Below, piece by piece: positions 2,434 through 5,832 of a DNA stretch of 10,991 nt. This DNA comes from a virus. How positions within the stretch are numbered: the first letter of the stretch is position 1; every line of letters starts with the position of its first letter. The notes under the pieces are model-generated. The model was not told the DNA's origin and made no database searches. It was given only the letters and a program-made list of their open reading frames with translations. The stretch is taken from UHGV virus genome UHGV-1820253; one strand, written 5' to 3'. The position numbers were made by a program, and so were the translations under genes.

Positions 2434-2781
2434 TCAGAACTCTTCGATGTTCCAGCCTCCACCTGCTTTCTTTGGTTTAACCGTTACCCCGATGATTCGG
2501 AACGGATACTGATCTGCGGCTACTTTGGTTTTCACCCTGGCGTCGTCGGTCCAGAATCCCCCTTTCACTTCGTACAGTTCCATCTCTCCGGTGGCGAGCA
2601 TCACAGCGAAATCGGGCGTATAGAACGTGTTGTCAGCTAACCGCAGCTTAATACCCTCGAATCGATACCAGGCGATTTCCCCTGCACGTTTACGCTGCTC
2701 AAGGTGCTGGCAATACGCAGATTCTGTTTTGTTCATCTGGCCTGTTTTGAGTCGACCAAGAGCCTGTATCTGTTTTCTCAT
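2434..2781 (-). CDS. Phage protein of unknown function (115 aa), recalls the DUF1064 family (possible nuclease-like fold)
   Basis: ATG at 2781-2779 with AGGT RBS. Motif YCQHLEQRKRAGEIAWYRFEGIKLRL...YTPDFAV...ELYEVKGG matches my memory of DUF1064 phage proteins. An operator-like palindrome overlaps its RBS. Confidence 0.55.
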   Translation of the reverse strand: MRKQIQALGRLKTGQMNKTESAYCQHLEQRKRAGEIAWYRFEGIKLRLADNTFYTPDFAVMLATGEMELYEVKGGFWTDDARVKTKVAADQYPFRIIGVTVKPKKAGGGWNIEEF

Positions 2782-2783
2782 GA

Positions 2784-2868
2784 TTTACCTCTAAGGTAAT
2801 TAAAAACCACATAAGACACGAAATCAATAGATTTTAGAATATTTTATTACCCAACAGGTAATTATCAA
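2784..2868 (-). promoter_or_regulatory. Putative internal promoter with two operator palindromes upstream of the nin-position cluster
   Basis: Minus strand reads TTGATA (-35, plus coords 2863-2868), 16-nt spacer, TAAAAT (-10, 2841-2846). The spacer is the perfect palindrome ATTACCcaacaGGTAAT (2846-2862). A second site, TTTACCtctaaGGTAAT (2784-2800), overlaps the RBS of the 2434..2781 gene. Confidence 0.45.
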
Positions 2869-2898
2869 GACGTAAAAAAATGCGCTATCGCGCTGGTA

Positions 2899-3699
2899 TT
2901 ACTTGATAAATCCTGCCGCCTTTCCCCGCCTGTATTCCTCCATCAGCCACTGCGCCGGTGTTATTCCCCCAAGGGTGGCGGCGTTAGGCATGCACCCGAA
3001 ACTTCGCCCTGGTGGATGGTAAACGTCTCTCCCTGTGTCCGGAGGTGTACTCATGGGCTCTCGCTTTGCCTGTATGCTGATCACCGGATCGGGTATCTGC
3101 TGTCCGGAAGCTACCTTTTTCGCCCAATCATCGAGCAGCCTGCGCGCGTGTTTCTCAACCTCAATCTCGCTAAGCTGGCGCTGATACATTGCACGGCGGG
3201 TATCACATACGACCCAGTACATAACCGGATGTCGCCACGGGAATCTTTCGGGACCACCAGGATATAAACTTTTTTCCTTGCTGTACCGGTGAAACTCCGC
3301 CATCACATCGTCAATGGTGACGCCAAGAACCATCTTGCTGTCTTTACACCACTTGATGAATTGCCCTGGCGACGGCCAGAACGGAGACTCACTGGCGCGG
3401 GCGTGGCGCATACCAGCAGAAACCTGTTCACGGGTTCGGATCCCCCCTTCGGCAAACGCAGCAATCCACTGCTGTTTTGCAGCAACTTCCTGCTCTGGCG
3501 TCTTCAGGTTGGTTACCACTGCCGCCGGAAACAGTTGTTTCAGCTGTTTGAAAAGGGCATCAACAAGCCTCTCTGCTGACATGTTCACCACGTTGTCATT
3601 GTTGGTGTACTGATGCTCATAACCTGACATGCGAGAAAGGGCTTCTCCGTCACGGTTTTGTATCGCGGTAAAAACGTTGTTCACAAGAAATCCTCCCAT
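2899..3699 (-). CDS. Lambda P-like replication protein (DnaB helicase loader)
   Basis: Residues AAVVTNLKTPEQEVAAKQQWIAAFAEGGIRTREQVSAGMRHARASESPFWPSPGQFIKWCKD align closely with lambda P (…RQWVLAFRENGITTMEQVNAGMRVARRQNRPFLPSPGQFVAWCRE, recalled from memory). Sits directly downstream of the O-like gene. Start may be ATG 3699 or GTG 3684, the latter overlapping the O-like stop (GTGA). Confidence 0.85.
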   Translation of the reverse strand: MGGFLVNNVFTAIQNRDGEALSRMSGYEHQYTNNDNVVNMSAERLVDALFKQLKQLFPAAVVTNLKTPEQEVAAKQQWIAAFAEGGIRTREQVSAGMRHARASESPFWPSPGQFIKWCKDSKMVLGVTIDDVMAEFHRYSKEKSLYPGGPERFPWRHPVMYWVVCDTRRAMYQRQLSEIEVEKHARRLLDDWAKKVASGQQIPDPVISIQAKREPMSTPPDTGRDVYHPPGRSFGCMPNAATLGGITPAQWLMEEYRRGKAAGFIK

Positions 3700-4496
3700 G
3701 CTTCAGGGCTGTTCCAGTGCGGAACGTTGTTATCAGGTAATGTTGATTGCTTCTGTCTGCTAATCTGCAGCCGCCTTGCCAGCTTCTGCTCCCACTGTGC
3801 CTGATGGTATGCCTTACCCTCAGCCATCCAGTAAATTCTGAACTCTGCAAGTTCCTGTGCCGTTGGCAGACTGTCCAGGTAGATCCCCTGCAATGAGCTT
3901 TTCCGAAGAAAGTCATCTGATGGCTGCCATTGTTCATGCATGACAAATTTGCCTAATTGCCCTGGCCCACCAGGAGGAACAAAGTTATTCATCACGGCGT
4001 TGTTTGCGCCGGGGTCATGATGCACAGAATCCCCGTTTTTTGTCCTGCTCTCCCTCTCTTGGTTAAATGACTGGTTATATGACTGGTTCTGGATCCCGTT
4101 TTTGGGATCATTCAACATCCCGTTTTTGGGATCATTCAACATCCCGTTTTTGGGTATATTCCCGTTTTCGGTAACATTACCGTTTTCTGGTTCATTGCCC
4201 CCCTCTCGGTTGCCTTTAATGTTCCCGTTTTTGGTTATATTAAGAGAGAAAACCCGCACTCTTTTTGTCGCTCCCTTTCTCTCTCCGGTATCTGAAATAA
4301 GCCCCATTTTCATGAGCGATATAAGCCCGGCCTGCACGGTTTTTTTATTCAGGCAAGTGTCTTTAACGAGGCGTTCTATGCTGGGGTAGCAGAGGTTATA
4401 TTCATCGGCTCTGTCAGCCATCGAGAGCAGTATGAGCTTTAATGATGAGCTACCTGGATCTGTCTCCCAGGCCCAATCTGTTGCATGTCTGCTCAT
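3681..4496 (-). CDS. Replication initiator (lambda O analog): N-terminal winged-helix DNA-binding domain, Asn/Gly/Pro-rich linker encoded by iterons, C-terminal domain
   Basis: ATG at 4496-4494 with GGAG RBS 8 nt upstream; N-terminal HTH-like region (LKLILLSMADRADEYNLCYPSIERLVKDTCLNKKTVQAGLISLMKMGLI); central repeats NGNIKGNREGGNEPENGNVTENGNIPKNGMLNDPKNGMLNDPKNG coincide with DNA direct repeats; immediately upstream of the P-like gene. Confidence 0.8.
   Translation of the reverse strand: MSRHATDWAWETDPGSSSLKLILLSMADRADEYNLCYPSIERLVKDTCLNKKTVQAGLISLMKMGLISDTGERKGATKRVRVFSLNITKNGNIKGNREGGNEPENGNVTENGNIPKNGMLNDPKNGMLNDPKNGIQNQSYNQSFNQERESRTKNGDSVHHDPGANNAVMNNFVPPGGPGQLGKFVMHEQWQPSDDFLRKSSLQGIYLDSLPTAQELAEFRIYWMAEGKAYHQAQWEQKLARRLQISRQKQSTLPDNNVPHWNSPEAWEDFL
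4093..4241. repeat. Iteron array (putative phage replication origin) inside the O-like gene: six direct repeats of about 18-20 bp, core CCCGTTTTTGG..ATT
   Basis: Copies at 4093-4112 and 4117-4136 (identical, atcccgtttttgggatcatt), 4141-4160, 4159-4178, 4179-4196 and 4222-4241 (degenerate). Spacing of 24, 24, 18 and 19 bp. Lambda ori is likewise embedded in O. Confidence 0.7.
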
Positions 4497-4712: not shown

Positions 4713-4818
4713 GGTAAGCCCTGTTATTAGTATTGGGATTACGGTCATTTTGTGCTGACACAAAAAAAAGATCAACCAGATTTGGTTTTTTATTACCTTT
4801 GAGGTGCGAATAGATATG

Positions 4819-4840
4819 AAAAGACCGCCGGGTGGCGGTC
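4819..4840 (-). terminator. Candidate intrinsic terminator or attenuator between the Cro-like and cII-position genes
   Basis: On the minus strand a 7-bp GC-rich stem (4840-4834 paired with 4829-4823) is followed by TTTT (4822-4819). The U-tract is short, so termination is probably partial. Confidence 0.4.
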
Positions 4841-4862
4841 TACAGAGGGTTGTGGCTGGATA

Positions 4863-5117: not shown

Positions 5118-5146
5118 GATAATAAATATTCACCCATAAGGTAACA
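5118..5146 (-). promoter_or_regulatory. Putative PR-like promoter for the Cro-like/replication operon
   Basis: Minus strand TTGTTA (-35, 5146-5141), 17 nt, TATTAT (-10, 5123-5118); an operator half-site pair sits in the spacer. Confidence 0.35.
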
Positions 5147-5193
5147 AAAATCAAGGATAGTTACCTATGGGGTGCATTTACCTGTTGGGTAAT
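5128..5193. promoter_or_regulatory. OR-like operator cluster: three 17-bp sites matching WTTACC-N5-GGTAAW
   Basis: TTCACCcataaGGTAAC (5128-5144), TTTACCtatggGGTGCA (5160-5176, degenerate right half), TTTACCtgttgGGTAAT (5177-5193). They lie between the divergent Cro-like and repressor genes. Confidence 0.5.
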
Positions 5194-5247: not shown

Positions 5248-5832
5248 ATGAAAAGTATCCAGGACGTCCGCAGGCAAAATCTCAACGACTTGATCGACCG
5301 TGAATTCAATGGTGTTCAGACGCGGATGGCAGAAAAACTTGGAACTCAGGCAAATCTGGTAAACCGCTGGGCTCTTGGCAAGAAGGTTATCGGCGACCAG
5401 GTTGCGCGAAAAATTGAAGCTGCCGCCAATAAACCCCGTAACTGGCTTGATATCGATCGCTCGCTTTCTCAGGAAGGTTTTCAGCCTGTCGGCCCAAGCG
5501 ACATTGGTCAGCTGGCGGCTCACAACCTGGAACGCTGGATGAGCGAAAGCCGCGACCTTTCAACACAGGGAAAACTTCACCGCGCATCCGGCGTCGCCCA
5601 GGTGACAATCAGCCGCCTGTTAAACAATGAGGTCAGCGTTTCCATTTCCACCCTGGAGAATGTTGCATCCGCATTCGGGCGTCACGGCTATGAATTACTG
5701 ATTCACCCGCACGACCCTGCGACCATCAACTATGACCGCTCGCGCTACGCATTGTTACCCGAAACCGAGAAAGCAAAGATCGAAAGTTACATTGAATTTG
5801 TCATCAACCAGAACGAAAAAAACAAACAATAA
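5248..5832 (+). CDS. Tandem-HTH (two XRE-like domains) transcriptional regulator; candidate prophage repressor (CI analog)
   Basis: ATG 5248; two HTH-like segments (QTRMAEKLGTQANLVNRWALGKKV and LHRASGVAQVTISRLLNNEVSVSISTLENVASAF); flanked by operator clusters on both sides; followed by a strong intrinsic terminator; no GDSM-type S24 peptidase motif seen. Confidence 0.7.
   Translation: MKSIQDVRRQNLNDLIDREFNGVQTRMAEKLGTQANLVNRWALGKKVIGDQVARKIEAAANKPRNWLDIDRSLSQEGFQPVGPSDIGQLAAHNLERWMSESRDLSTQGKLHRASGVAQVTISRLLNNEVSVSISTLENVASAFGRHGYELLIHPHDPATINYDRSRYALLPETEKAKIESYIEFVINQNEKNKQ

Follow-up and report, generated by a model that had tools for sequence, protein, structure and literature searches.

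An iteron array inside the initiator gene of a phiV10-type prophage as its probable replication origin

Where does a temperate phage of the phiV10 type begin to copy its DNA? The question is raised by a stretch of 10,991 nucleotides from the virus genome UHGV-1820253 (hereafter the window), in which six short direct repeats, or iterons, lie inside the gene for a replication initiator and are at the same time translated as part of the protein. Public records name this gene "primosomal protein", "DnaT-like ssDNA-binding domain-containing protein" or "helix-turn-helix domain-containing protein" and annotate no origin feature at it, and the searchable literature gives no prior description of iterons or of an origin for epsilon15, phiV10, or phage initiators of the DnaT-domain or HTH_36 kind. 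The key test is whether the DNA or the peptide has been conserved, because a slippage-prone, low-complexity linker would look alike in a single sequence. On the strength of the comparisons given below, we consider it likely that the array is the initiator-binding site of a replication origin placed inside the initiator gene of the phage itself.

The window is part of an Escherichia coli prophage of the phiV10/phiv142-3 type. Its identity to phiv142-3 and phiV10, phages of the genus Uetakevirus, is 97-99%, and at least 80% of it is found in 147 of 5,426 complete E. coli genomes, O157:H7 strains among them. Relatives were sampled at two distances: 80 near-identical loci out of viral contigs, and 80 loci from species-dereplicated genomes, whose initiator N-domains are 40-87% identical to that of the window. 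The annotated phages compared were Edwardsiella GF-2, Vibrio H20, Acinetobacter AP22 and PPompW, and the complete genome of phiv142-3 (39.3 kb) served as the sister phage genome. The family defined by the N-domain comprises 547 cluster representatives at E 1e-10 or better, and the hosts of its motif-bearing members include Acinetobacter, Vibrio, enterobacteria and Desulfovibrio-type genomes.

The initiator gene and its iteron array

The initiator gene occupies positions 3681-4496 on the minus strand and encodes 271 amino acids (aa). Its product matches Pfam HTH_36 at aa 18-67 (E 1.8e-10), Pfam DnaT at aa 184-252 (E 1.1e-15) and PHROG 1032, "replication initiation protein" (E 1.4e-108), and is 100% identical to a phiv142-3 gene product annotated "putative primosomal protein". 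The gene that follows it on the same strand (2899-3699) encodes a lambda-P-like helicase loader (Pfam PF06992, Phage_lambda_P, E 1.5e-56; also PHROG 109, "P-like helicase loader"). The HTH_36 domain, the DnaT C-terminal domain and the adjacent P-family gene that mark the HTH_36/DnaT_C phage initiators of PHROG 1032 are all present.

An AlphaFold (AF2) model of the initiator, based on 68 family sequences, divides the protein into three parts. Codons 1-88 (4233-4496, minus strand) form a winged helix-turn-helix domain of four helices and a beta-hairpin wing, with a predicted local distance difference test (pLDDT) score of 94-98; this is the presumed iteron-binding module. Its Foldseek matches are winged-helix regulators and staphylococcal RepA N-terminal domain (NTD)-DNA entries, and a profile of the domain gave chance-level matches only against PDB sequences. 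Codons 89-180 (3957-4232, minus strand) are a linker that is predicted to be disordered, aa 90-180 (about 90 aa) having a pLDDT of 45-51 and no secondary structure. Codons 181-255 (3732-3956, minus strand) form a DnaT-like, three-helix domain for single-stranded DNA (ssDNA) binding with a pLDDT of 92-97. Its sequence matches the PDB entries 9zbt, 6aep, 4ou6 and 2ru8 at E 1e-19 to 1e-21, and the domain superposes on the DnaT ssDNA-binding crystal structures 4ou6/6aeq with Foldseek template modelling (TM) scores of 0.91-0.93 at about 50% identity.

A repeat search of the window finds six direct copies of one repeat family, starting at 4093, 4117, 4141, 4159, 4177 and 4222, so spaced at 24, 24, 18, 18 and 45 bp in an array that covers 4093-4237. 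In Tandem Repeats Finder the array appears as a 24-bp period over 4093-4154 (2.6 copies, 100% matches, score 124) and an 18-bp period over 4138-4187. On the plus strand, where the copies are the reverse complement of the coding sequence, the repeat core is TCCCGTTTTTGG; with up to two mismatches it has 8 matches in the window, against 1.15 expected. The shorter string CCGTTTT is found 10 times, against 1.84 expected, a count reached by none of 200 shuffles, and seven of the ten lie within 4033-4231 and on one strand only.

All six iterons are in one reading frame, as codons 86-135 of the initiator gene, and are translated as N-x-P-K-N-G repeats of the linker. Read on the coding (minus) strand and in the direction of the gene, iteron A (4222-4237) is TAACCAAAAACGGGAA, peptide I-T-K-N-G-N; iteron B (4177-4192) is AACCAGAAAACGGTAA; iteron C (4159-4174) is TTACCGAAAACGGGAA, peptide V-T-E-N-G-N; and iteron D (4141-4156) is TACCCAAAAACGGGAT, peptide I-P-K-N-G-M. 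Iterons E (4117-4132, peptide D-P-K-N-G-M) and F (4093-4108, peptide D-P-K-N-G-I) share the sequence ATCCCAAAAACGGGAT. The best units have the form ATCCC-AAAAAC-GGGAT, that is, a dyad of 5+5 bases, as in iteron E, flanking an A-tract. Iteron B is degenerate in the window: at 4188 its coding strand has A, in contrast to 44 of 45 same-length alleles, whose C gives AACCCGAAAACGGTAA. This change of CCC to CCA is synonymous and disrupts the CC core of the iteron.

An original prediction made from the window sequence alone had described six direct repeats, the first two of them identical 24-bp units, and both statements agree with the repeat search; the peptide segment that it quoted stands exactly so in the translation (...NITKNGNIKGNREGGNEPENGNVTENGNIPKNGMLNDPKNGMLNDPKNGIQ...). 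It had further proposed that the repeats encode a linker joining an N-terminal DNA-binding domain to a C-terminal domain, and Pfam and the AF2 model support this. Of the interval that it gave, 4093-4241, the start is correct but the end is not, the array reaching about 4237-4245. The repeats do lie inside the initiator open reading frame (ORF), with the qualifications that this ORF is on the minus strand and that one of the six copies is degenerate.

Two further observations concern the array and its surroundings. A look-alike at 4031-4042 (minus strand; coding strand CAAAAAACGGGG, peptide T-K-N-G-D), with two mismatches to the core, was rejected as a seventh iteron: near-identical relatives read TKSGD, TKTGD, TKTRG or TKAGD here, and position 4036, inside it, is triallelic. 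It probably stands outside the array and is non-functional. On the plus (antisense) strand, terminator-like hairpins followed by T-runs are found at 4103-4122, 4127-4146 and 4169-4182. They are weak, with 3 G-C pairs, and are probably a by-product of the facing halves of neighbouring iterons.

Conservation of the DNA of the repeats

In most of the relatives, repeats of the type N-x-[P/T/S/A]-x-x-G follow directly after the N-domain, and the strict pattern is found in 68 of 83 distinct genes. These 68 genes contain 178 units, 97% of which have C as the third base of the P/T/S/A codon, against a background of about 21%. The preference holds for each amino acid taken separately: CCC 97% versus 21%, ACC 93% versus 27%, TCC 100% versus 12%, and GCC 100% versus 20%. 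Within the units Lys is always AAA and Glu always GAA, while Asn is AAC in 83% of cases versus 47% in the background. When one unit per gene is counted, the third base is C in 66 of 68, against 21.5% (binomial p 1e-41).

A search for the 10-nt core that ignores reading frame leads to the same object. Its 210 matches in the linker zone consist of 158 that are translated as xPKNG, 21 as PKTE/PKTG and 31 as peptides of the TQKRD/SQKRN type. The core occurs in more than one reading frame in 33 of the 83 genes, and all three frames are used in the family as a whole. The linker contains 6.4 matches per kb, whereas the figure falls to 0.05 per kb for the remainder of the gene and to 0.07 per kb per strand for the 2.5-kb flanks, so that the core is enriched about 90-fold in the linker. 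In the phiv142-3 genome, CCRAAAACGG occurs six times, all in the initiator gene and on one strand, where 0.11 would be expected, and the genome holds no second motif cluster.

The motif is also symmetrical, with the family consensus T-N-CC-RAAAAY-GG-N-A. Of 174 units, 102 have the outer T paired with an outer A, and the palindrome is perfect in some relatives (TCCCAACGTTGGGA, TACCAATATTGGTA). Residue changes, even radical ones, are found where they improve the palindrome; for example, a change of N to I in GF-2 gives CCCAAAATTGGG, and AP22 has K-F and I-Y centres. Covariation between motif positions 6 and 17, the inner dyad pair, is not evident, and coupling is confined to the outer T/A pair. 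Because synonymous bases are near-fixed, three frames are used, the motif is confined to the linker and it has dyad symmetry, the conserved object in these repeats is DNA and not peptide.

The constant partner of the array

Among the features compared, none but the HTH_36 N-domain is found with the array in every case. It is present in 75 of 75 scanned family members, whereas their C-domains vary (DnaT in 8, Phg_2220_C in 5, DnaA_N in 2, none recognised in the rest), and so does the downstream gene in relatives (n=58), which is P in 18, a DnaB-type helicase in 4, IstB/DnaC-like in 2 and others in the remainder. When a unit is defined as N-x-[PTSA]-x-x-G or the DNA core within 120 aa after the N-domain, at least two strict units are found in 86 of 125 full-length representatives of 50%-identity clusters and at least one in 99 of 125. 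The density of strict units in these representatives is 2.40 per 100 aa in the linker versus 0.03 elsewhere. The centre of the iteron follows the clade of the N-domain, RAAAAC being that of the clade of the window and AACAGT, AACAAT or AATATT those of the Acinetobacter/Marinomonas clade, while CC...GG is constant.

Initiators that share the C-domain and have other, unrelated N-domains provide the reverse comparison. SPN1S, Tyrion, TL-2011b and the Rac protein YdaU have a DnaT-like C-domain, and their genes show neither the peptide repeats nor the DNA core. The N-domain of YdaU is DUF1376, and there is no obvious iteron array inside the SPN1S, Tyrion, TL-2011b or Rac ydaU initiator genes.

A natural chimera is found in the Edwardsiella phage GF-2 (initiator at 2501-3343 of the stretch compared). 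Its aa 1-136 carry a window-type HTH_36 domain and CC-N6-GG iterons, its aa 137-280 (144 aa) are 62% identical to aa 156-299 of lambda O (E 2e-67), a P gene comes next, and the junction lies just past the origin region. The window-type N-domain and iterons thus replace those of lambda ahead of the same O-C/P machinery. We regard this chimera as the strongest indirect evidence that the function of the array would be equivalent to that in lambda.

A conserved 12-bp element after the array

Directly after iteron F, at 4060-4092 (minus strand; codons 136-146), the coding strand reads CCAG AACCAGTCATAT AACCAGTCATTT AACCA. It is a tandem element with period 12, 2.4 copies and 94% matches in Tandem Repeats Finder. 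Its copy number varies, phiV10 having three copies, one more than the window, and the exact string AACCAGTCAT is confined to this element in the 39-kb sister genome. At this place, relatives from Acinetobacter to Vibrio have two or three GAAYCNNYCA-type repeats, each about 12 bp long.

The element is constrained at the DNA level as well. After the last iteron, 60 family genes encode G-x-Q/R-N-Q/L-S/P..., and the synonymous bases of these codons are fixed: CAG in 33 of 33, CGG in 26 of 26, TCA in 34 of 34, and CCA in 26 of 26. Proline serves as an internal control, being always CCA after the array but CCC in 97% of cases within the iterons. In many genomes an A-rich run follows the 12-mers, and the mean AT excess of the family has its peak, +0.21, some 40 nt downstream. 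The 12-bp element is part of the same feature as the iteron array, and it is a candidate for the element at which the DNA is unwound or the loader enters.

Relation to known origins and initiators

The best-known origin of this kind is that of lambda, in which iterons and an AT-rich tract lie in the middle of gene O (PMC7466680, PMC3349717). Like lambda, the window has its array within the initiator gene, in the part that separates a DNA-binding N-domain from a partner-binding C-domain. Its iterons are likewise dyads of TCCC, an A-tract and GGGA with the same polarity relative to the gene (ATCCCTCAAAACGAGGGA and variants in lambda), a P-type loader gene comes next, and the genes form an early rightward-type operon behind a cro-like gene. 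The differences are as follows. The spacer between CCC and GGG is 9 nt in lambda (CCC-N9-GGG) and 6 nt in the window; lambda has four annotated iterons in mixed frames, whereas the window has six in one frame and its relatives 5-11; the C-domain is O-type in lambda and DnaT-like in the window; and the position of the strong AT-rich tract of lambda is held in the window by the 12-bp tandem element. The claim of a lambda-type origin within the initiator gene is supported by the domains, the P partner, the DNA-level constraint, the dyads, the co-inheritance with the N-domain and the GF-2 chimera.

Calling the initiator O-like is correct for this design but not for membership in the lambda O family. 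Such membership by sequence was rejected, the N-domain being HTH_36 and not PF04492 and the C-domain not O-type. The initiator has no match to PF04492 (Phage_rep_O) even at E values up to 1, while lambda O scores E 5.7e-36 in the same run, and BLASTP of the initiator against lambda O gives nothing significant. A more distant link is seen with profiles: hhalign of 28 family N-domains against a four-sequence O-type profile (lambda O, phi80 gp15, P22 gp18 and HK97 O) gives a probability of 84% (E 7.5e-6) over 46 columns, namely the helix-turn-helix and the wing, and the match ends just before the first iteron in both groups. Against single sequences the probabilities are 6% and 17% only. Remote homology of the N-domain to the lambda-O-type N-domain is therefore plausible at the profile level.

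Phage phi80 comes closest in the iterons themselves. Its gene 15 (X13065, 1067-1139 of the record stretch) has four copies of TTCCCGAAAACGGGAA at 21-bp spacing, with the iteron core CCRAAAACGG and the T...A flanks of the window; they stand just after the N-domain, with AT-rich DNA and then the loader gene (gene 14) beyond them. The N-domain of phi80, in contrast, is lambda-O-type (PF04492, 34% identical to lambda O), its C-domain is O-type, and its iterons are read in another frame, as F-P-K-T-G. The iteron sequence of the window, which the original prediction called distinct, is thus distinct from that of lambda but has the same 10-nt core as that of phi80. A distinct replication specificity does not follow from it, the core alone being insufficient, since it is common to phi80 and many HTH_36-type initiator genes.

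Gene 18 of P22 and gene O of HK97 have four dyad iterons right after the N-domain (TTTACC-N5-GGTAAA and TTAGCC-N5-GGCTAA), and two AT-rich 14-mer tandem repeats come next (ACAAAAGACAATAT twice), which parallels the order of iterons and then 12-mers in the window. They differ in the iteron sequences, in the spacing of 20, 24 and 23, which is the lambda pattern, and in the partner, a DnaB-type helicase and not P.

Initiators with an origin inside the rep gene are also found on plasmids, as in the RepA_N type (RepA of staphylococcal pSK41/pTZ2162). There, too, the iterons lie centrally in the rep gene and are bound by the winged-helix N-domain of its product, and the RepA NTD structures 4pql and 5kbj give weak Foldseek matches to the N-domain of the window (E 0.06-0.09). 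There is no sequence relationship, the hosts and partners are other ones, and the structural match is no better than that to generic MarR-type winged helices.

In bacterial chromosomes, the DopC/DopE pair of Cellvibrionales and Oceanospirillales consists of a protein with HTH_36 and a DnaT C-terminal motif and, after it, a member of the lambda-P family (Brezellec et al. 2017, PMC5509034). The pair is said to derive from O/P genes of lambdoid phages, and dopC is without iteron-like repeats and, according to the authors, no longer acts as an origin (PMC5509034). The two-gene architecture is the same as that of the window, and the difference is that the phage-borne form keeps an intact iteron array.

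Proposed mechanism and alternative explanations

If the array is the origin, initiation may proceed along the following lines. Dimers of the winged-helix N-domain would bind the dyad iterons, five or six side by side, and form a nucleoprotein complex like the lambda "O-some" on the A-tract-rich DNA, wrapped or bent as by lambda O. This complex would destabilise the 12-bp element together with the DNA at about 4040-4092, which is modestly AT-rich. The DnaT-like C-domains, tethered by the linker and concentrated by the array, could then bind the exposed strand; the C-domain of DnaT forms ssDNA filaments in the preprimosome, and the authors of that work note parallels to DnaA (PMC13377028). The C-domains, the open complex or both would recruit the P-like loader, which would bring host DnaB, and transcription of the early operon would pass through the origin site.

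Several observations weigh against an origin at the array. The AT-rich tract beside the iterons is weak in the window (GC about 0.40-0.43, AT excess +0.09 to +0.14; GC about 0.40 at 4060-4119). For phages of this group, the searchable literature contains no data on binding, footprints or replication. The minimum of the cumulative GC skew near the locus coincides with a switch in transcription direction and is therefore uninformative. The family genes are phylogenetically related, and the synonymous-site counts are not fully independent; this caveat is limited, because unconstrained synonymous sites should be randomised at 40-60% protein identity.

The remaining two points come from close E. 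coli prophages. Among these near-identical prophages the protein varies from 263 to 311 aa, the 24-bp unit (peptide NDPKNGML) occurring in 1-7 copies and the 18-bp unit (NVxENG) in 1-4, with duplications of larger blocks in some alleles. Such free drift in copy number is expected of slippage-prone repeats, functional or not. All these changes are in whole units or codons, which would be so because the origin sits in coding DNA. In 45 same-length alleles, variable sites number 2 of 50 in the iteron cores, 13 of 103 in the rest of the array and 62 of 663 in the rest of the gene; the lower polymorphism of the cores is a trend only and does not reach significance (p 0.15 and 0.30).

The alternative that survives best is that the initiator-binding sites are mainly regulatory, serving titration or handcuffing, autoregulation or the exclusion of related phages, while opening and helicase loading take place elsewhere. 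The weak AT-rich tract would fit this, as would the inhibition of rep-lambda phages in trans by cloned lambda iterons (PMC3349717) and the finding in Stx phages that some iterons are poorly bound yet still needed (PMC7466680). We nevertheless judge it improbable: the 39-kb sister genome has no second cluster of the motif, DNA-constrained 12-mers and an AT-rich peak stand right after the array across the family, and the layout is that of lambda, P22, HK97 and phi80, whose arrays are their origins.

A second alternative is that the repeats are no more than a slippage-generated, low-complexity coding linker rich in Asn, Gly and Pro, with no role of the DNA in cis and with an origin elsewhere or undefined. 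It would accommodate the predicted disorder of the linker, the common in-frame copy-number polymorphism and the non-significant polymorphism test within the clade. It does not explain why synonymous positions are near-fixed across distant relatives, why one DNA motif is translated in three frames into three unrelated peptides, or why the motif has dyad symmetry and radical residue changes that improve the palindrome are tolerated in GF-2 and AP22, and we consider it very unlikely. Least probable of all is that the motif is read by a host factor, by another phage regulator or as an RNA signal in the mRNA, given that the antisense hairpins with T-runs that might suggest it are weak and arise automatically from neighbouring dyads, that the window has no Rfam family match and no enrichment of DnaA boxes (8 versus 9.7 expected), and that the HTH_36 N-domain is constant across diverse hosts while C-domains and downstream genes vary.

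An origin inside the initiator gene, which we prefer to these explanations, is a textbook design, and with an iteron core common to phi80 the array is not a new kind of element. The newer aspects are the conserved 12-mer element and a possible opening step by a DnaT filament. A wider proposal, which we offer tentatively and hold to be doubtful as a whole, is that initiators of the HTH_36 type and of the lambda O/phi80 gp15 type are forms of one ancient origin-recognition cassette, a winged helix with in-gene TCCC-A-tract-GGGA iterons, spread across Proteobacteria. In the branch of the window the origin would also include a second, hitherto undescribed cis element, the two or three GAAYCNNYCA 12-mers with their fixed synonymous bases, and the array would concentrate DnaT-type C-domains to form an ssDNA filament there, a DnaA-like opening before P delivers DnaB.

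Neighbouring genes and transcription

The start of the loader gene overlaps the end of the initiator gene, either at an ATG at 3697-3699 or at a GTG at 3682-3684 across the TGA stop, as seen in the window sequence and in the phiV10 annotation; this suggests translational coupling of the two genes. Upstream of the initiator gene are a small ORF, a terminator-like hairpin, a cro-like gene and a divergent repressor gene. The hairpin, at 4822-4841 on the minus strand in the gap between the cro-like gene and the replication genes, is strong (8 pairs, 6 of them G-C), and the phiV10 annotation has a rho-independent terminator at the equivalent place. Because it precedes the replication genes, read-through or antitermination may be needed for expression of the initiator and for transcription through the origin. 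The AT-rich intergenic DNA at 4740-4800, which is the short gap from this hairpin to the next ORF, was rejected as an alternative origin; it contains no iteron core.

The cro-like gene is preceded by a promoter-like site, at 5119-5147 on the minus strand. The repressor-like protein (5248-5832, plus strand, 194 aa), which is divergently transcribed, has apparently two helix-turn-helix regions, YdaS-like at aa 21-61 and HTH_3 at aa 106-147, and its phiV10 homologue is annotated in the same way. Downstream of the replication genes, between two minus-strand ORFs, there is one perfect DnaA box, TTATCCACA, at 2385-2393 on the plus strand.

Significance for phage replicons

With its origin placed in the initiator gene, the phiV10/Uetakevirus type of prophage would get a defined replicon. 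With the signature peptides N-x-P-K-N-G, TQKRD and VPKTE, together with the CC-N6-GG core, automatic detection of origins would be possible in many initiator genes of the HTH_36 type. Vectors may be built on it as a minimal replicon, and knowledge of the iterons may help to predict replication incompatibility or exclusion between co-resident prophages. The replicon would also be a test bed for the action of DnaT-type domains in initiation. The bacterial DopC/DopE pair is linked to a phage ancestor that still bears iterons, and the array would be a clean natural case of one DNA segment under dual selection, as protein-coding sequence and as a protein-binding array.

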